Shown piece after piece: positions 2,016 through 33,786 of a stretch of 45,805 bases of DNA. Within the stretch, counting starts at the first letter, position 1. The number at the start of each line of letters is the position of its first letter. The stretch lies in the sequence record NC_073314.1; one strand, given 5' to 3'. The stretch is from Escherichia virus fEg-Eco19. A program made the position numbers and the translations under genes. The notes below the pieces were generated by a model. The model worked only from the letters and a program-made list of their open reading frames with translations, was not told the DNA's origin and searched no databases.

Positions 2016-2324
2016 TTGGATAAATTTACTGAAACAGTGACGGGGTGGCTTCTCGCTGCCGCACTGGTCGGGGGATTGGTCGGACTAAGACAACATAAAA
2101 AGTCTATATCCGGGCCGATTGACGGACTGGTATTTCTCCTCACCGGCTTCGCGTGTGCCATTTTCGGTGCACCTCTTGCTGCTCAATGGTTCGGTATTAC
2201 CGGTGAGCGCGAGATAGCTGGCCTCGGATTCATCATTGCCATTCTCTGGATGCCTATCTATTCCCGCCTTTCTGGCATCGTATCGGGCGGCAATATTGCC
2301 CGCCCAGGAGGACCGCATGACTGA
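2016..2324 (+). CDS. holin-like membrane protein (3 predicted TM helices)
   Basis: Three hydrophobic stretches; immediately upstream of endolysin. Confidence 0.5.
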   Translation: MDKFTETVTGWLLAAALVGGLVGLRQHKKSISGPIDGLVFLLTGFACAIFGAPLAAQWFGITGEREIAGLGFIIAILWMPIYSRLSGIVSGGNIARPGGPHD

Positions 2325-2589
2325 GCTATTCTGGTTTGTCGTAATGCTGGCAATGGGCGCTTCGTCCCTGTTCAACGTGTATAATGAACGCGTGGACGAC
2401 GGGCTGTTCGGGCGTGTTCTCTATATCCTGACTGCTATCGTCTGTGCCGCCGGATGTATCCACCTGTTACAGGGCAGCATGTCACCAACGCTGCCTGAGA
2501 CATTAATCACATTAGTCGCGCTGCGCCAGATTCGCCAGGCGTGGCTGTCATACGGAGGACATAAGCGTGTCTCGAAATATTTCAGATAA
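2317..2589 (+). CDS. small membrane protein (second holin or antiholin candidate)
   Basis: Internal ATG of track ORF 2236..2589 (MTELFWFVVMLAMG...); two hydrophobic helices; overlaps endolysin start. Confidence 0.4.
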   Translation: MTELFWFVVMLAMGASSLFNVYNERVDDGLFGRVLYILTAIVCAAGCIHLLQGSMSPTLPETLITLVALRQIRQAWLSYGGHKRVSKYFR

Positions 2590-3055
2590 TGGATTGCATT
2601 TCTGTGCCGCGTTCGAGGGATTCCGCGGAACTGCGTATCGTGCTACGCCGAATGAGAAGTACCTGACTATTGGTTATGGTCACTACGGGCCAGACGTAAC
2701 ACCAGGTAAGACCATCACACCAGGACAGGGCTTGCTGTTACTGAATCGCGATATGGCTAAGGCTGTAGCTGCTGTTGACGCGGCAGCACACCATTCGCTT
2801 ACACAGGCACAGTTCGACGCCGTGTGTGACCTGGTCTATAACGCCGGTGCAGGTGTGATTGCAGCTACTACTGGCACGGGTAAGGCGCTGCGTTCTGGTG
2901 ATGTTGCGACGCTACGGGCTAAACTGGTGCTGTTTATCAACCAGAACGGCAAACCGCTACTGGGCCTGCGTCGCCGTACTGCAGGTCGTCTGGCGCTGTT
3001 CGACGGTAAACCATGGCAGGAGGCGGAGGCTATTGGACGCGCGGTGAAAGGTTGA
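2567..3055 (+). CDS. endolysin, T4-lysozyme-like (GH24) muramidase
   Basis: FEGFRGTAYRATPNEKYLTIGYGHYG matches the GH24 catalytic Glu / TIGYGH region; GTG start. Confidence 0.8.
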   Translation: MSRNISDNGLHFCAAFEGFRGTAYRATPNEKYLTIGYGHYGPDVTPGKTITPGQGLLLLNRDMAKAVAAVDAAAHHSLTQAQFDAVCDLVYNAGAGVIAATTGTGKALRSGDVATLRAKLVLFINQNGKPLLGLRRRTAGRLALFDGKPWQEAEAIGRAVKG

Positions 3056-8528: not shown

Positions 8529-9605
8529 ATGCTATTAACTTTAGTACCACAGGGTTTAACTATGAGCTTACTTACATCTCTAATCAGCCACCAGATTTGG
8601 CTGCAACGCACTGCATCCGGTGAGGTGAAAGACCTCGCGCCGTTCATTAAGGAGATGCGGGACGAAATAAAACGGCAGGTGCTGTTATTCGGTGACGACG
8701 GGCGGAGCACTGCGCGACTGAATAAACTGTTACTCGACCTTGAAGAAGCGCTAACCGGACTTACCGGCGATTGGCAAACAAAGCTGACAGAAGACCTTAT
8801 GGAACTGGCGGCGTATGAGGCCGAGTGGAATGTAAAGACACTGACCACCAACGTAGATGCGGAATTTGTTACGCCTACTGCCGAACAGGTGTGGTCCGCT
8901 GCCGAGTTTCAACCCTTATCATTAAGCGACAAGCCTGTTGACTTCACCAAGTTGATGTCTGGCTGGGGTGAAACAGAAGTGTCGCGCCTGGTAACCGGCG
9001 TTAAGATGGGCTTTGTACAAGGCCAGACAACACGGCAGATTGTTAAGAATGTTGTTGGCGCTGGTGGGCTGGCGGACATCTCTGAACGTAATGCTGCTAC
9101 TGTAATCCGCACCGCGCTGTCCCACGTATCCAACGAAGCCCGTAACGAGACGTACCGCCAGAACGACGACATCATCGAGAAGTACGAGTGGGTGTCAACG
9201 CTGGACAGCCGTACCAGTACGATTTGCAGAGCCAGAGATGGAATGACGTGGGAAATTGGTAAGGGGCCGATGCCCCCCGCCCATCCGAACTGTCGAAGTA
9301 CCACTGCGCCTGTAATCAGTTCCGAGTTCGACTTCCTGGATAAAGGAGCGAAGCGAGCGGCTAAAGGTGCGGAAGGCGGTACTCAGGTAAGCGCGGACAC
9401 CACTTACTACGAGTTCCTGAAACAACAACCGGCGTGGTTTCAGGATGAAGCGCTCGGCCCGGTGCGGGGTAAGATTTTCCGTAACAGCGGTATATCGCCG
9501 GAAGAGTTTCGCGTAATATCTGTAGATGGTTTCGGGAATCCGCTCACGCTTAAGCAGATGGCGGAACTCGATAAACGTGTTGCTGATTATCTGAAAGGGG
9601 AATAA
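8529..9605 (+). CDS. head morphogenesis protein (Mu F / SPP1 gp7-like)
   Basis: Position after portal; ICRARDGMTWEIGKGPMPPAHPNCRSTT region matches the conserved Cys/His region of this family. Confidence 0.65.
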   Translation: MLLTLVPQGLTMSLLTSLISHQIWLQRTASGEVKDLAPFIKEMRDEIKRQVLLFGDDGRSTARLNKLLLDLEEALTGLTGDWQTKLTEDLMELAAYEAEWNVKTLTTNVDAEFVTPTAEQVWSAAEFQPLSLSDKPVDFTKLMSGWGETEVSRLVTGVKMGFVQGQTTRQIVKNVVGAGGLADISERNAATVIRTALSHVSNEARNETYRQNDDIIEKYEWVSTLDSRTSTICRARDGMTWEIGKGPMPPAHPNCRSTTAPVISSEFDFLDKGAKRAAKGAEGGTQVSADTTYYEFLKQQPAWFQDEALGPVRGKIFRNSGISPEEFRVISVDGFGNPLTLKQMAELDKRVADYLKGE

Positions 9606-10093: not shown

Positions 10094-10615
10094 TTATTTA
10101 AATCGCGCAGGCATTAACACCATAAAGGCCGTGTTTGAAAATAGTATTTTGCATCCTCTGGTTTGGTCCTGGAAATCGAAACGAGCAATTTCATTTTTGT
10201 ATGCCTTAGAAATCTTGTACGCGTCTGCCAAATAGCGCAGAGTGAACCCTATACTATCGACAACACCCGGTGTGATGTGCGCCACGCGTCTCCAGTCAGG
10301 AAAGTTTCCTTCTACAACATCTACCGGAAGTGTACATATAAGCGCACGATTATCGTCATAGAAAGATACACTGCCGTTGTCGTGGTCTACCTCTGCGTAG
10401 TTAAATTTAGAAGGCTCTCTCCCTTTGATGTTTATGAGAGTCCCTTTCTCAACGTTGGTCTTCACATTGTCGCAGAACAATCTATGACCGTCCGTAGACA
10501 CTATCAATCCTTCAGGGTCTATGTAAAAAGCGTTCAAATAGTGGCGAACATCATTTTTAGCCCTGCATATTTTCGCCCCTACATACGCAGGGAAAGTAAT
10601 TACTGTAGTAACCAT
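10094..10615 (-). CDS. hypothetical protein, opposite-strand accessory gene in head module
   Basis: 173-aa ORF with AGGAGA RBS; visibly AT-richer than flanking head genes; own promoter. Confidence 0.55.
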   Translation of the reverse strand: MVTTVITFPAYVGAKICRAKNDVRHYLNAFYIDPEGLIVSTDGHRLFCDNVKTNVEKGTLINIKGREPSKFNYAEVDHDNGSVSFYDDNRALICTLPVDVVEGNFPDWRRVAHITPGVVDSIGFTLRYLADAYKISKAYKNEIARFDFQDQTRGCKILFSNTAFMVLMPARFK

Positions 10616-10640
10616 TTCTCATCTCCTGTTTAAGTTAACT

Positions 10641-10669
10641 GAATAGTACCCTATTATATTGGGGTGTGC
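10641..10669 (-). promoter_or_regulatory. sigma70-like promoter (TTGCAC-N17-TACTAT class) with AATAG-N4-CTATT palindrome
   Basis: Reverse complement reads TTGCACaccccaatataatagggTACTAT; ~30 nt upstream of the ATG at 10615. Confidence 0.45.
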
Positions 10670-10723
10670 AAACTATTTGTTTACGTATTCCAGTTATTCC
10701 ACTCAATTGTAAATGTTGGAATA

Positions 10724-10766
10724 AACTATTCGAATAGTTGACTTTTCACTGAAAATATGATAAGCT
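10724..10766 (+). promoter_or_regulatory. 16-bp perfect palindrome AACTATTCGAATAGTT abutting a TTGACT-N17-TAAGCT promoter
   Basis: Read directly from sequence. Confidence 0.35.
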
Positions 10767-10772
10767 CCACCT

Positions 10773-10973
10773 GAGCTTGTGAAGTATGAACAAGCGACCG
10801 CGGCGCGGGCAGGTAACGGAGCGGGACGTAAGTCCTGAGTGTAGTTACGCTGACGCGTTCGGAAGGGCCATACTCTATTGCTTGTGTAAAAAGTAACTGG
10901 TTTACTGAGATTACGCCGTTTCTATGTTTAAATGATAAGGACTAGCGCCCCGCTTTAAGGCGGGGCTTTACTT
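10773..10973 (+). ncRNA. candidate small non-coding RNA (promoter to terminator, no ORF over 36 codons)
   Basis: GC-rich ~200 nt between promoter at ~10738-10766 and terminator at ~10947-10973. Confidence 0.2.
10947..10973 (+). terminator. rho-independent terminator
   Basis: GCCCCGC-tttaag-GCGGGGC followed by TTTACTT. Confidence 0.5.
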
Positions 10974-10990
10974 ATCGAGAAAGGGGAAAC

Positions 10991-11350
10991 ATGAATCTTA
11001 AAGCAACTGTCGTAGCCGGAGCATGTTTCGTCGTCCTAGCCTACGCACACGGCATCTATCAATACCGCAGCGGCTGGGGTGAAGGCCGTGCTAATCTCGT
11101 TTCGCAGCAGCAGCAGAAAGCACAGGCCGCGCTGGTGAAGAAAACACAACGGCAGCAGCAGGATGAATCAAAGGCCGCCGCCGCTGACAACGAAGGCAAA
11201 ACGAAATCAGAGGTGATAACCCGTGAAGTCGTTAAGTACATAAGTCGACCCAATAAGGTATCTTGCAAGTTTGACGCTGATAGAGTTAGAATCAAATACG
11301 ACGCTGTCAACAACGCAAACGGGATACCAGGGTATGACGATATTAAATGA
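10991..11350 (+). CDS. putative i-spanin (Rz-like)
   Basis: N-terminal TM helix, then Q/K/A-rich helical region, conserved Cys near C-terminus; 119 aa. Confidence 0.4.
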   Translation: MNLKATVVAGACFVVLAYAHGIYQYRSGWGEGRANLVSQQQQKAQAALVKKTQRQQQDESKAAAADNEGKTKSEVITREVVKYISRPNKVSCKFDADRVRIKYDAVNNANGIPGYDDIK

Positions 11351-11840
11351 TACTTTCTACTACGATGATGGGGTTCTTTACTGGCGTAGCAGTAAGCTCG
11401 CCAATAAAACAGGAACCCCAGCAGGGTGCCTAACTACGCCGAAAGGCGCAAAACGGCGACAGACGATAGAGGTTAGATGGATGGGGAAGGCGTTTCAAGC
11501 GCACCGTCTTATATGGGAACTTTTCAATGGGCCAATTCCGACGCCATATGAGATAGACCACATTGACGGGAACCCACTCAACAATCGTATAGAAAATCTA
11601 AGGCTTGCTACTAGCCAAGAGAACAGTCGTAACGTTGGTCTCACGTCCGCTAATAGTACAGGGTTCAAAGGGGTTTCCAGGTTCCCAAACGGCAGATTCC
11701 GTGCGGACATAAGAATCCGCAACAAGACCAAATACCTCGGTCAGTTCGACTCCCCCGTCGACGCACACAAGGCCTACGTGCAAGCTGCCAAGAAGCTACA
11801 TGGAGATTTTTTCAAATGCGACTGCCAATATTGCTCTTAG
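11334..11840 (+). CDS. HNH homing endonuclease with AP2-like domain
   Basis: AHRLIWELFNG...EIDHIDGNPLNNRIENLRLATSQENSRN, then GFKGVSRF...AYVQAAKKLHGDF; paralogous to 31390..31875 and 33289..33786. Confidence 0.75.
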   Translation: MTILNDTFYYDDGVLYWRSSKLANKTGTPAGCLTTPKGAKRRQTIEVRWMGKAFQAHRLIWELFNGPIPTPYEIDHIDGNPLNNRIENLRLATSQENSRNVGLTSANSTGFKGVSRFPNGRFRADIRIRNKTKYLGQFDSPVDAHKAYVQAAKKLHGDFFKCDCQYCS

Positions 11841-12055
11841 TTATATGGTGCTACGGGTGCTCAAGTCCCGCGCCGTCGTCAATGCCAACTCCGTCCCCGG
11901 ATACGACGATGATGCAGCCGCCGTGCAAACTGGCACCGCCAAGTAGCGACGCTGACGAGGATTTAGCTATCGACGTTCAGAACGCCGAATGTGTACGGCA
12001 ACTGAGACTGAAAGTGTTCATGTTGCAGGATTACGTGAGGAATATTCTGGAATAG
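11816..12055 (+). CDS. putative o-spanin (Rz1-like lipoprotein)
   Basis: MRLPILLLVIWCYGC signal with lipobox-like YGC, then Pro-rich PAPSSMPTPSPDTTMMQPP; overlaps HNH 3' end. Confidence 0.4.
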   Translation: MRLPILLLVIWCYGCSSPAPSSMPTPSPDTTMMQPPCKLAPPSSDADEDLAIDVQNAECVRQLRLKVFMLQDYVRNILE

Positions 12056-12137
12056 TTGCCTTGCATGTTGGAATAATTTATTCTTGACATGTAAATCCGG
12101 GTGGCCCGGGTTCCAACGTCCAGGGGACATACTGACT

Positions 12138-12839
12138 ATGAATCGTTTTTTACGTTATCCGTTCCAGGAAGAAGCTGGAGCAGAAGATAAATCTGGTGGC
12201 GGTGACGCTCCGAAAATGTTCACCGCTGAAGAAGTTCAGGCGCTGATTGAGAAAGAAGTTGCCGGGCTTAAGGCCAATCAGGAAGCATTGCTGGCGGAGA
12301 AGAAAGAAGCCGCCCGCAAAGCAAAAGAGGCCGAAGAAGAACGGCAGCGCGCACACCAGGAGGCGTTAAAAGCCGCTGGTAAGATGGATGAGTTCGAAAA
12401 GACGATTCGTAGCCAGTATGACCCGGTGTTAGCCGAGAAAGATGGTCGCATCTCCAAAATGGCGGAGCGCATCCTCGGCAGCGAACGTAAAGCGGTGTTA
12501 GGCTCTTTCGCAGGTGACTTTATTACCCCGGAAGCAGTAGACATTCTTGCTCCGTTCGTTAAGACTGAGTTCGAAGGTGATGATGTGGTTACTAAGTTTG
12601 TTGGGCCAGACGGCGGTGTAATCACGACTGACCCTGAACAGTTCCGCAAATACCTGCGCGAACACAAAGCGTTTTCGCATTTGATTAAAGCAAATGCAGC
12701 TTCCGGCGGCGGGGCTTCCGGTGGCAAAGGCGGCGGGGCCGCACCAGCGTTTAAAGACATGAGTGAAGCAGAGCGTTTAGCTCTGTATAAATCGAACCCT
12801 GCCGAATTTGAACGGCAACTTAAAGCCCTGAGGAAATAA
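12138..12839 (+). CDS. scaffolding protein (by position and composition)
   Basis: Internal ATG of track ORF 12084..12839; acidic coiled-coil protein directly upstream of major capsid gene. Confidence 0.5.
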   Translation: MNRFLRYPFQEEAGAEDKSGGGDAPKMFTAEEVQALIEKEVAGLKANQEALLAEKKEAARKAKEAEEERQRAHQEALKAAGKMDEFEKTIRSQYDPVLAEKDGRISKMAERILGSERKAVLGSFAGDFITPEAVDILAPFVKTEFEGDDVVTKFVGPDGGVITTDPEQFRKYLREHKAFSHLIKANAASGGGASGGKGGGAAPAFKDMSEAERLALYKSNPAEFERQLKALRK

Positions 12840-31389: not shown

Positions 31390-31875
31390 TCACGTCGTTT
31401 CTCCGTGGTTTTCATGAAATCCGTAAGCAGCCTCCGCGGCTTTACGCGCGGCAACAGCTTCGTCAAAATTATCAAACTGTCCTAGATGTATTTTTCTTCT
31501 GTCGACTTTTATCTCTGCCACCCATTTGTTTCTTCTCTTTTCCCGCCATACACCAAGAGCGCCGCTAGTATTGTTTACCCCTATTGATGCGTTGCGGCTA
31601 TTTTCGGTGTTGGTAACTTTCCGTAGGTTGCGTATTCGGTTATCAGTTCGTATATGATTAATGTGGTCTATCTGTTCCTGTGGCGTAAGTTGGTTATCTG
31701 GATTGCAGATATTCCATGCTAACCGGTGTGCTAGTTCTAGTTTTCCGTTTACTCGGATACGAATGTACCCATCCCGTGGACAAAAGCATCCCGCTTTCTT
31801 TCCAATAAAACCCCTACGTTTTGTTTCAGCCCATGTGAAAATACCGGTTTCAGGGTCGTATGATACCTTGCTCAT
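31390..31875 (-). CDS. HNH homing endonuclease with AP2-like domain
   Basis: AHRLAWNICNPDN...IDHINHIRTDNRIRNLRKVTNTENSRN, then GALGVWRE...AAYGFHENHG. Confidence 0.75.
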   Translation of the reverse strand: MSKVSYDPETGIFTWAETKRRGFIGKKAGCFCPRDGYIRIRVNGKLELAHRLAWNICNPDNQLTPQEQIDHINHIRTDNRIRNLRKVTNTENSRNASIGVNNTSGALGVWREKRRNKWVAEIKVDRRKIHLGQFDNFDEAVAARKAAEAAYGFHENHGETT

Positions 31876-33296: not shown

Positions 33297-33786
33297 TATT
33301 AACCCCGTGGTTGGTATGGAAACCGTATTCTATTTCTGCGGCTTTACGTACCGACAATGCCTCTTCGAACGTCTTAAATCTGCCTAGTTCCATAAGTATT
33401 GTTTTTACACGTATGCGCGCTCGCCAAATACCTTCTTTTATCAAAAATTCCACACCAGTTGCGCCGGTCTTATTACATGTGTACAAGCTCTTGTTCTGCA
33501 TGTTTTGTTGCGTTGTAACCTTACGTATGTTGTCCCCTCTGTTGTTAGTTTTGTCATGATCTATGTGGTCTATTTCATCGTCCGGCCCTAATAAATCATC
33601 AGGGTGTAACGTATCCCACGCTAAACGATGCGCCTGATACATCTTTCCGTCTATTTTTATCCTGACGTAGCCGTTACTTTTACTGCCGCCCGCTATGGAG
33701 CCAGCGGAACGACCTCGCGGGGCAACCACCCATGTGAAAATCCCGGTGTCTGGGTTATAGTCCAGTCTGCCGTCGAAGCATTTCAT
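33289..33786 (-). CDS. HNH homing endonuclease with AP2-like domain
   Basis: AHRLAWDTLHPDD...IDHIDHDKTNNRGDNIRKVTTQQN, then GATGVEF...AEIEYGFHTNHG. Confidence 0.75.
   Translation of the reverse strand: MKCFDGRLDYNPDTGIFTWVVAPRGRSAGSIAGGSKSNGYVRIKIDGKMYQAHRLAWDTLHPDDLLGPDDEIDHIDHDKTNNRGDNIRKVTTQQNMQNKSLYTCNKTGATGVEFLIKEGIWRARIRVKTILMELGRFKTFEEALSVRKAAEIEYGFHTNHGVNNG

Follow-up and report, generated by a model that had tools for sequence, protein, structure and literature searches.

An HNH-AP2 endonuclease gene with the features of a homing cassette separates the spanin genes of a Kagunavirus

The DNA analysed here is a 45,805-nt stretch of Escherichia virus fEg-Eco19 (NC_073314.1; hereafter the window), a member of the genus Kagunavirus (Guernseyvirinae). 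Its i-spanin and o-spanin genes are separated by an endonuclease gene that overlaps both of them, an arrangement that probably reflects a site-specific, free-standing homing endonuclease that enters the spanin locus of Guernseyvirinae-like siphophages, co-converts its flanks and turns an overlapped locus into a separated one. The locus has a defined anatomy and a fixed insertion site, it is distributed sporadically, its genes are under selection and its flanks are mosaic. The insertion is not a mere interruption but a cassette that brings replacements for the i-spanin C-terminus and for the o-spanin signal peptide, a point that the original prediction, made from the sequence alone, had missed. 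Spanin genes are textbook overlapping genes, which shift among embedded, overlapped and separated layouts. The locus provides a concrete route from the overlapped to the separated layout that recurs in different phage backgrounds, and that is polarised because there are clean empty sites, a fossil of the old i-spanin tail and a ready-made signal peptide in the cassette. The features of the locus are listed below.

10947–10966, + strand: GC-rich hairpin followed by T's, just 5' of the i-spanin ribosome-binding site; sequence invariant in the alignment with relatives
10991–11350, + strand: i-spanin, 119 aa, a chimera (phrog_2536 'Rz-like spanin', E=1.5e-49)
11249–11863, + strand: 615-nt cassette, absent in 207 of 208 GenBank relatives, in place of ~47 nt of the ancestral overlapped locus
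11334–11840, + strand: free-standing HNH_3 + AP2 endonuclease gene, 168 aa (Pfam HNH_3 6.1e-23; phrog_99 2.6e-59)
11802–11805, + strand: GGAG Shine-Dalgarno-like motif, 10 nt 5' of the o-spanin ATG, inside the HNH His-Gly-Asp/Glu codons
11816–12055, + strand: o-spanin, 79 aa, a chimera (phrog_5672 2.8e-30; phrog_1267 5.3e-18)
11846–11848, + strand: TGG (Trp11), a window-only change; GGG (Gly11) in the two sister alleles of Kagunavirus, whose lipoboxes read VIGC or AIGC
11860–11946, + strand: fossil of the original i-spanin C-terminus (LKSRAVVNANSVPGYDDDAAAVQTGTAK and stop), in the frame one base behind that of the o-spanin, within the mechanical ORF 11800–11946
11864–11905, + strand: 42-nt patch, ~86–90% identical to every Kagunavirus relative, encoding SSMPTPSPD as in Serratia-type o-spanins

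All three ORFs were confirmed, in the order i-spanin, endonuclease, o-spanin. With ATG 11334 as its start, the endonuclease gene begins within the final 17 nt of the i-spanin gene, and its own final 25 nt contain the o-spanin start. This ATG is conserved in all homologues and annotated in phage vB_VIPECOMC04 (MC04), and the alternative start TTG 11271 was discarded on these grounds. The two spanin genes are 465 nt apart (11351–11815), a gap occupied by the HNH gene, and are neither embedded, overlapped nor adjacent; spanin gene separations of up to ~1 kb are on record, so that this distance does not exclude membership (Kongari et al. 2018, PMC6139136). The predicted spanin pair, split by an HNH-AP2 gene overlapping both members, is thus borne out by the ORFs and by the PHROG and Pfam matches. 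The spanin calls themselves had been rated as only moderately supported and turn out to be far stronger, with PHROG matches of 1e-49 and 1e-30 and annotated homologues of the 'Jersey' family, to which the window spanins appear to belong. A six-frame lipoprotein scan for a different spanin pair elsewhere in the window returned the ORF at 11816, its only plausible lipoprotein ORF, together with internal and antisense artefacts, and no other spanin or lipoprotein ORF.

The lysis genes were also confirmed, with holins at 2016–2324 and 2236–2589 and the endolysin at 2567–3055. Their distance of ~8 kb from the spanins, previously considered unusual, is real but normal for the genus: the spanins lie between head genes in every relative, which is the standard Kagunavirus/Guernseyvirinae layout, and the fBC-Eco01 paper likewise gives spanins apart from holin and endolysin as the genus norm (PMC9825357). 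In all relatives, the hairpin upstream of the i-spanin gene appears to delimit the spanin transcription unit.

The i-spanin is composed of two parts of different origin. Codons 1–86 (10991–11248) are of Kagunavirus type, with 97.2% identity to phage Ivi and ~97% DNA identity to the annotated i-spanins of Ivi and Snoke, and the homology with HNH-free relatives stops in the alignment at about 11248. Codons 87–119 (11249–11350) form the cassette-borne C-terminus, which ends in GYDDIK and a stop. Hydropathy analysis gave one hydrophobic N-terminal segment, consistent with a single transmembrane segment in type II topology, at residues 5–23 (ATVVAGACFVVLAYAHGIY; mean Kyte-Doolittle 1.69), which is the same in Ivi, and the Snoke homologue bears a TMHMM note. 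The conserved periplasmic Cys92 is present.

Comparison with the GenBank relatives shows that 207 of 208 lack the endonuclease and carry the usual overlapped spanin pair, with about 155 nt shared, at this position. The split is therefore a defined 615-nt insertion/replacement and not a chance ORF pattern. For an endonuclease between spanins, which had been considered unusual, a GIY-YIG precedent has been published for T5-like phages (see below). Besides the endonuclease, the cassette contains a divergent C-terminus for the i-spanin and, for the o-spanin, a new start and signal peptide. In the Kagunavirus alignment the left junction lies at about 11248 and the right homology junction at TGC TCA AGT, i.e., at the lipobox Cys codon. 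There, the cassette-borne signal peptide MRLPILLLVIWCYG (11816–11857) meets the resident mature domain at the Cys15 codon (11858–11860). The mature part is proline-rich, retains Cys37 and Cys59, and is 91–95% identical to those of K1H and Sciku. The same site is used in the Serratia-type contig L008, which compared with Smarc3 has a clean 575-nt insertion, with zero recipient bases lost, directly 5' of the lipobox Ala-Cys codons.

The original i-spanin tail persists as a fossil inside the o-spanin gene, in a frame that matches the tails of the intact i-spanins of Ivi, Snoke and K1ind1. Its decay has gone to different lengths in different lineages: MC04, L019 and L008 have the whole frame, L020 has part of it, and in L007, L010 and L021 it is interrupted by stops. 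The upstream and fossil tails are similar only at the protein level (~60%), and no significant DNA direct repeat was found between 11290–11345 and 11860–11905; a recent in-place tandem duplication of the tail was consequently rejected.

At the downstream overlap, the DNA that encodes the ...CDCQYCS peptide of the endonuclease gives, in another frame, the o-spanin start MRLPIL.... The block CATGGnGAnTTyTnCAnATGCGAyTGyCAATATTGyTCT is conserved in five of five aligned lineages, and all six database clusters of o-spanins starting with MRLPIL begin within an upstream HNH gene. DNA-level conservation across lineages applies to the upstream overlap block as well. Only the spanin-locus HNH clade has the CDCQYCS extension at the C-terminus: it is absent in the outgroup L018, and L017 ends differently.

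In the endonuclease, the Pfam HNH_3 match spans residues 55–99. The AP2 match (1.4e-6, 28.9 bits) lies below the Pfam cut-off of 33.3 bits, and in precomputed Pfam data AP2 is listed for most of the homologues. Against solved structures the protein gave weak matches to I-HmuI (PDB 1u3e, E=0.0018) and to the AP2 domain of plant ERF096 (E=0.0013). The catalytic motif EIDHIDGNPLNNRIENLRL...QEN is kept across all members of the HNH clade. An Rfam scan of positions 10600–12400 found no intron family, the sole match being a meaningless snoRNA (E=0.11), and the gene is accordingly regarded as free-standing; an intron-borne endonuclease was rejected on this result and because the ORF shares sequence, in different frames, with two distinct genes. 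Between the window and MC04 the HNH gene differs by 18 synonymous changes and 1 nonsynonymous change (omega 0.014), and is thus under strong purifying selection. The omega values of the i-spanin (0.14–0.25) and o-spanin (0.07–0.40) likewise correspond to purifying selection.

Among the 208 GenBank relatives, the HNH gene occurs only in MC04, which is also the only GenBank phage in which a sensitive blastn search found the cassette (95.8% identity); a third copy is carried by the metagenome contig L019 (95.3%). In the wider collection, the i-spanin/HNH/o-spanin module is present in at least 13 loci, with an upstream overlap of 17 nt, a downstream overlap of 25–31 nt, and HNH proteins that are 50–99% identical. 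The backgrounds comprise Kagunavirus, Serratia-phage-like genomes and other Guernseyvirinae-like contigs whose nearest GenBank relatives are Salmonella phages. In the Serratia group, none of three distinct GenBank relatives has the gene, yet six metagenome contigs do. The nearest non-Kagunavirus HNH protein is 73% identical to that of the window, and beyond the spanin-locus clade the next relative shows 44–46% identity in an unrelated context. A tblastn search of GenBank phages yielded no donor of the cassette, the next HNH relatives being at most 43% identical and in unrelated contexts; the actual donor of the Kagunavirus cassette is not among the sampled genomes. A scan of IMG/VR with the HNH protein retrieved two distant loci (38–40% identity), and the two IMG/VR matches to the dual-coded junction pattern ATGCGAYTGYCAATATTGYTC were discarded as chance hits in unrelated ORFs.

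The sequences around the cassette are mosaic. The cassette is 95–96% identical among the window, MC04 and L019, and the 5' part of the window i-spanin, so close to the HNH-free Ivi, is only 91.8% and 90.6% identical to those of the HNH carriers MC04 and L019, respectively. For Kagunavirus and Serratia, the groups with known close HNH-free relatives, the flanks share 93–97% identity with those of the relatives. The Kagunavirus cassette tail FDADRVRIK... is closer to Serratia-type tails than to Kagunavirus ones, and the left tract measures ~34 codons in Kagunavirus and ~17 in L008. On the right side, the patch at 11864–11905 is of donor type in the window only; the corresponding o-spanin segments of L008 and Smarc3 read SPMPTPSPD and SPMLTPSPD. 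The patch is probably a longer donor tract kept in the window phage.

These observations are consistent with the following mechanism. The endonuclease ORF would travel with the 3' end of a short-form i-spanin gene (...GYDxxx and stop) and with the Shine-Dalgarno motif, start and first ~14 codons (signal peptide) of the o-spanin gene, the three parts together forming the mobile unit. In a mixed infection, the enzyme, whose activity and target are predicted from sequence comparison, would cut or nick an endonuclease-free spanin locus, and homing would proceed by repair from the endonuclease-carrying genome, for which the body of the i-spanin gene on the upstream side and the part encoding the mature o-spanin would provide the homology arms. 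Recipients with the ~155-nt spanin overlap would have the entire cassette copied in. The outcome would be a separated locus with chimeric i- and o-spanins and, within the o-spanin gene, a non-functional fossil of the recipient's i-spanin tail. Continued function of the spanins is expected, since the transmembrane segment, the coiled-coil body, the conserved cysteines and the mature o-spanin domain are retained, although function is in doubt specifically for the window o-spanin because of its aberrant lipobox.

Ordinary homologous recombination might spread the cassette unaided by the endonuclease, phage genomes being mosaic anyway. Some lineages diverge more in the endonuclease than in the adjoining spanin pieces: between L007 and L010, the HNH proteins are 74% identical and the o-spanins ~97%, so that flank conservation may reflect spanin function instead of co-conversion. 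The variable donor-type flanks and the mosaic backgrounds could also be explained by ordinary recombination or by functional constraint. Extending the homing mechanism, it is conceivable, if doubtful, that this is an endonuclease lineage whose coding ends have become fused to both host genes, so that homing un-overlaps the spanins and the element is held in place by genetic hostage-taking. On this view the final codons of the i-spanin would supply the endonuclease start, and the CDCQYCS extension of the endonuclease would supply the ribosome-binding site, start codon and signal peptide of the o-spanin. If this were true, each homing event would convert an overlapped pair into separated, chimeric spanins across phage genera, and loss of the endonuclease gene, whether by plain deletion or by decay, would take the o-spanin with it, which would hold the element beyond what homing alone does.

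The lipobox of the window o-spanin bears on an alternative that we consider unlikely, namely that the spanin pair of the window phage is dead or crippled, with an i-spanin shortened by 9 residues through the insertion and a lipobox destroyed by the later Gly11Trp change, and that the phage survives because many plating conditions do not require spanins. Mutants of lambda Rz/Rz1 still form plaques, and their defect shows mainly with divalent cations. The checks of signal peptide and lipobox gave a divided answer. The n-region, with Arg2, is good and the hydrophobic core is strong (mean hydropathy 3.39), but the lipobox region VIWCYGC (MRLPILLLVIWCYGC), read as VIW-C12 or as CYG-C15, matches none of the three patterns tried (classic, PROSITE-style and relaxed). 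The positions off pattern are Trp at −1 of Cys12 and Cys at −3 of Cys15, and the failure is due to the Gly11Trp change, confined to the window; Gly is kept in MC04 and L019, and the sister alleles (VIGC, AIGC, LVGC, LSAC, LSGC and LTGC) all fit. Nor does the window hold a substitute lipoprotein ORF. Against a dead pair, both ORFs are intact, Gly stands at −1 of Cys15, and Cys15 aligns with the lipidated Cys of every other o-spanin allele. Moreover, unusual lipoboxes such as AWAC are proven to be functional in spanins (PMC6139136), a short i-spanin ending in GYD.. occurs naturally in FSL SP-031, and in the carrier lineages purifying selection acts on the two spanins.

The very strong purifying selection on the HNH gene, and the strict maintenance of its position and overlaps over protein identities of 50–99%, would also suit a domesticated phage function, either packaging-associated or as a regulator of late or lysis genes, whose place reflects co-expression. 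HNH proteins aid terminases in HK97-like phages (also cited in PMC9825357). We regard domestication as very improbable: 207 of the 208 close relatives are viable phages without the gene, for which reason a packaging factor was dismissed; the gene does not adjoin the terminase genes; the HNH_3/AP2 class is typical of homing enzymes, and among solved structures the best match is to the homing nickase I-HmuI; the HNH copy of L017 appears frameshifted between intact spanins; and purifying selection is expected for an actively homing element too. Marginally less probable again is an ancestral separated layout containing the HNH gene with later losses, or a local duplication in Kagunavirus with a de novo signal peptide. 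The presence of the module in several genus-level backgrounds, the deep HNH divergence and the saturated synonymous sites speak for antiquity, and Kongari et al. (2018, PMC6139136) argued that the separated layout of this spanin family may be the ancestral one. However, each loss would have to restore the overlapped arrangement exactly, and with another signal peptide, the HNH-free and HNH-carrying alleles are 93–97% identical in their flanks yet differ by a clean cassette, and the fossil tail matches the local HNH-free relatives and not the cassette tail. The ~60% protein identity of the two tails, with no detectable DNA repeat, argues against a recent duplication in place, and the Serratia-like character of the cassette tail argues against both an ancestral layout and a local origin.

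Arrival of the cassette by homing also has parallels in known systems. T4-like phages have free-standing homing endonucleases, the Seg and Mob proteins, and an insertion of mobE reportedly divides the nrdA gene of Aeromonas phage Aeh1 into two parts that still function. These are intronless endonuclease genes between or within host genes, inherited with co-conversion of flanking markers and tolerated since the interrupted function is preserved; the window locus resembles them in the first respect and may do so in the other two. In the mobE case, one gene is cut into two polypeptides, whereas here two originally overlapping genes are un-overlapped and both receive replacement coding ends. HNH-AP2 endonucleases of phages and cyanobacteria were reportedly described by Magnani and colleagues in 2004; as predicted for the window gene, an HNH nuclease is followed by an AP2-type DNA-binding domain. 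By contrast, I-HmuI of Bacillus phage SPO1, the weak structural match given above, is an intron-encoded HNH nickase.

The window locus adds a further case to one known from T5-like phages, in which Shivani and phiR201 have a GIY-YIG gene between their two spanin genes (Kongari et al. 2018, PMC6139136). By the published description, there too an endonuclease separates the spanins of a family that is otherwise overlapped, and relative to endonuclease-free relatives the i-spanin differs only at its extreme C-terminus and the o-spanin only in its lipoylation signal. The T5-like case concerns two phages whose spanin genes are ~700 bp apart, and differs in its endonuclease (GIY-YIG instead of HNH_3+AP2), spanin family and phage group. 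Both insertion and deletion were considered possible for it, and any change must regenerate the lipoylation signal (Kongari et al. 2018, PMC6139136). The dual-coded overlaps with both spanin genes, the fossil i-spanin tail, the spread over several genus-level backgrounds and the variable donor tracts are reported here and not for Shivani and phiR201. The window locus is also a compact natural system for asking how a selfish endonuclease can enter dual-coding DNA and spare both genes, whether an element of this kind gains stability from overlapping its host genes, and how much variation the spanin C-terminal contact and the lipobox tolerate.

Within the 'Jersey' family itself, the two-component spanins of Jersey, K1G, K1ind1–3, SETP3 and others overlap by 155 bp, and the separated members are FSL SP-031, SP-038 and SP-049 (Kongari et al. 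2018, PMC6139136). The window pair resembles that of FSL SP-031 in its short-form i-spanin ending just past GYD and in its 79-aa o-spanin, whose signal peptide bears no relation to that of the overlapped pairs. In FSL SP-031, on the other hand, no gene lies between the spanins, which overlap by 8 nt, and the signal peptide MNKLFLLAVIIGITGC is not of the MRLPIL type; its layout may be either a precursor or a footprint of the endonuclease-carrying one. As a minor observation, gene callers miss or shorten the o-spanin in these genomes, owing to the arrangement of the locus around the HNH cassette, and many database entries are 48-aa fragments that start from an internal Met.

The window was placed in the genus Kagunavirus (Guernseyvirinae), and a megablast search with nucleotides 10900–12150 returned 208 phage records, mostly of Escherichia and Salmonella siphophages. 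Three overlapping forward ORFs occupy the locus at the coordinates of the original prediction, far from the holins and endolysin:

10991–11350 (+), i-spanin, 119 aa (phrog_2536 'Rz-like spanin', E = 1.5e-49)
11334–11840 (+), HNH endonuclease, 168 aa (Pfam HNH_3, 6.1e-23; phrog_99)
11816–12055 (+), proline-rich o-spanin, 79 aa (phrog_5672, 2.8e-30; phrog_1267)
2016–3055, two holins and the endolysin

The endonuclease gene lies between the spanin genes and overlaps the i-spanin gene by 17 nt and the o-spanin gene by 25 nt. Together, the ORF positions, overlaps, profile matches and location of the lysis genes confirm the split-spanin observation. The spanin calls had been regarded as moderately supported, but the identifications are strong. 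The endonuclease matches Pfam AP2 below the curated cut-off (1.4e-6), and among solved structures it has weak matches to I-HmuI, a homing nickase, and to an AP2 domain from a plant. The distance of ~8 kb to the holin and endolysin genes is real, but it is not unusual as had been suggested: in every relative the spanin genes are bounded by head-decoration/clamp-like genes on one side and by the scaffold gene on the other, well away from the holin and endolysin, as is also the case in fBC-Eco01 (PMC9825357), and this placement is the genus norm. A GC-rich hairpin with a T-tract (10947–10966, +) lies directly 5' of the i-spanin ribosome-binding site, is unchanged across all aligned Kagunavirus relatives, and likely either terminates the preceding unit or delimits the spanin transcript.

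The whole query was covered by only one of the 208 records, that of vB_VIPECOMC04 (MC04); the other 207 lack the HNH gene and match the flanks alone, spanning ~682 nt versus 1251 nt. In the HNH-free phages Ivi, Snoke and K1ind1 the spanin pair is overlapped (i-spanin 128–130 aa, o-spanin 87 aa), with the o-spanin start 232 nt into the i-spanin gene and ~155 nt common to both. Homology with these relatives is lost near 11248 and regained at 11864, and the right junction coincides exactly with the lipobox Cys codon (TGC TCA AGT). By alignment, a 615-nt cassette stands in place of ~47 nt of the ancestral locus. It consists of a divergent i-spanin C-terminus (ISRPNKVSCKFDADRVRIKYDAVNNANGIPGYDDIK-stop, replacing the ancestral IKTPGRSVCTFDDARVLLKSHAVANANSIPGYDDDAAAVQTGTAK-stop), the endonuclease gene, and an o-spanin start and signal peptide that differ completely from the ancestral ones (MRLPILLLVIWCYG-C versus MKSLSTLKRLAAACALSTMLAS-C).

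The mature o-spanin region is DNA of the recipient, and the original i-spanin tail is thus still readable in another frame as a fossil at 11860–11946 (LKSRAVVNANSVPGYDDDAAAVQTGTAK-stop), which fixes the direction of the change from overlapped to separated genes. The cassette tail and the fossil tail share ~60% protein identity, and no DNA repeat linking them was detectable at the locus; the upstream i-spanin tail was therefore imported and is no recent local duplication. A mechanical 48-aa ORF (11800–11946, +) opens at an ATG within the HNH coding sequence and reads across the fossil tail, and its equivalent is called as a gene in the metagenome contigs L008 and L019. The real o-spanin is cut short by gene callers, which report a 48-aa fragment beginning at an internal MMQPPC.

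A protein search of metagenome assemblies revealed closer HNH relatives (73, 67, 67, 59 and 51% identity), all five in the same genomic place with scaffold and major capsid genes downstream; the next relative (44–46%) has an unrelated context. In these modules the i-spanins (118–119 aa) end in GYDxxx-stop and overlap the HNH start by 17 nt, and the o-spanins (78–83 aa) start 25–31 nt ahead of the HNH stop, except in contig L017 (the 51% copy), where o-spanin and HNH do not overlap. O-spanins starting with MRLPIL lie within an upstream HNH gene in six of six database clusters. Both overlap blocks are kept at the DNA level across lineages. The downstream block encodes the HNH peptide LHGEFY(R/K)CDCQYCS and, one frame over, a GGAG Shine-Dalgarno sequence and M-R-L-P/S-I/V-L; the CDCQYCS extension is missing from the outgroup enzyme (L018).

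Carriers occur in a Kagunavirus background (the window, MC04 and L019), in a Serratia phage group (L008 and L009, with flanks 93.5% identical to HNH-free vB_SmaS-Smarc3), and among several other Guernseyvirinae-like contigs of unknown host, of which the one compared, L007, is nearest to the Salmonella phages SE1 (82%) and FSL SP-031 (~76%). L008 differs from Smarc3 by a clean 575-nt insertion, with zero recipient bases lost, directly 5' of the lipobox Ala-Cys codons, so that the insertion point is identical in the Kagunavirus and Serratia backgrounds. Judged from sequence, the module appears both conserved and mobile. The most distant spanin-locus HNH (L017 277–994, ~50–51%) is frameshifted to 137 aa, with the remaining AP2 in another frame. 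Its o-spanin (MKIILMVLMIALTGC...) begins directly after the HNH gene, without overlap, and the spanins on both sides are intact. The frameshift reflects either decay or an assembly error, and L017 may be a decaying copy or an intermediate layout towards separated spanins of the FSL SP-031 type.

Cassette identity among the three Kagunavirus carriers is 95–96%, and the 5' part of the window i-spanin is 97.2% identical to HNH-free Ivi, compared with 91.8% to MC04 and 90.6% to L019. The Kagunavirus cassette tail (FDADRVRIK..AVNNAN) is closer to Serratia-type than to Kagunavirus tails. A 42-nt patch (11864–11905), limited to the window, diverges from every Kagunavirus; its translation, SSMPTPSPD, is Serratia-like. 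The donor-type left tract varies in length among carriers, from ~34 codons in Kagunavirus to ~17 in L008. The window, MC04, L019 and L008 keep the whole fossil tail; L020 retains part of it, and stop codons interrupt it in L007, L010 and L021. This pattern points to insertions that differ in age or tracts that differ in length. The mosaicism of cassette and flanks, the tract variation and the fossil decay are likely signs of horizontal spread. In L007 and L010 the o-spanins are ~97% identical (dS 0.3), whereas the HNH genes enclosed by these flanks share only 74% identity and are saturated at synonymous sites, indicating that the endonuclease body recombined or was replaced independently of its flanks.

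The HNH gene probably encodes a free-standing, site-specific homing endonuclease; a search of the locus for intron RNA families found none. The copied unit would include the short-form i-spanin end and the o-spanin signal peptide, and conversion of a recipient with overlapped spanins would separate the two genes, leaving chimeric spanins and the fossil tail. The steps from cleavage through repair are those we infer. A comparable case is known from the T5-like phages Shivani and phiR201, in which ~700 bp with a GIY-YIG homing endonuclease separates spanin genes that overlap by 70 bp in T5; there, differences between the i-spanins are confined to the extreme C-terminus, and those between the o-spanins to the signal sequence (Kongari et al. 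2018, PMC6139136). The window presents the same phenomenon, with an endonuclease between the spanins and the same two segments altered, but with an HNH-AP2 enzyme in another spanin and phage family. In that classification, K1G and the K1ind phages are members of the 'Jersey' family, whose spanins are overlapped, and FSL SP-031 falls in a separated branch of this family (PMC6139136). The arrangement is unmentioned in the MC04 genome announcement, and our literature search found no paper describing it for Kagunavirus. The new elements are the HNH-AP2 class of the endonuclease, the family of spanins and of phages in which it occurs, the dual coding where the endonuclease gene overlaps the spanin genes, the fossil tail polarising the layout change, and the recurrence across several genus-level backgrounds.

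The spanins of this phage probably still work, since the i-spanin transmembrane segment (residues 5–23), i-spanin Cys92 and o-spanin Cys37 and Cys59 are retained, and a naturally short i-spanin ending in GYDHE-stop exists in FSL SP-031. The lipobox bears on whether the o-spanin of this isolate is crippled. Carriers other than the window, MC04 and L019 have a standard lipobox at Cys15 (LVGC, LSAC, LSGC or LTGC); MC04 has VIGC-YGC and L019 AIGC-YGC, and in the window alone codon 11 is TGG (Trp), giving VIWCYGC. This site misses the classic, PROSITE-style and relaxed patterns, and a search of the window for a substitute lipoprotein ORF found none. CYGC may or may not be processed, and a crippled o-spanin in this isolate is considered unlikely. 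The i-spanin, HNH and o-spanin genes are all maintained: the HNH genes of the window and MC04 differ by 18 synonymous and one nonsynonymous changes (omega 0.014), and omega across comparisons is 0.14–0.25 for the i-spanin and 0.07–0.40 for the o-spanin.

Upstream, the ORF at 10094–10615 (−) is annotated inconsistently: it matches a RusA-like resolvase in PHROG (5e-35) and, weakly, a DNA polymerase III beta-clamp in Pfam; its counterpart is labelled sliding clamp in the Snoke and Ivi records, and BLAST of this segment against K1ind1 gave no match. Two further phrog_99 HNH endonuclease genes (31468–31851, −; 33358–33750, −) are 32–35% identical to the spanin-locus enzyme, and two HNH genes, Gp45c and Gp49c, are listed for the Kagunavirus fBC-Eco01 (PMC9825357). 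The Mu-F-like capsid morphogenesis gene of Snoke (L003 1–205) is annotated with a 273-residue intein. Its window homologue (8529–9605, 358 aa) is intein-free, which adds a further mobile-element polymorphism within a few kb of the spanin genes.
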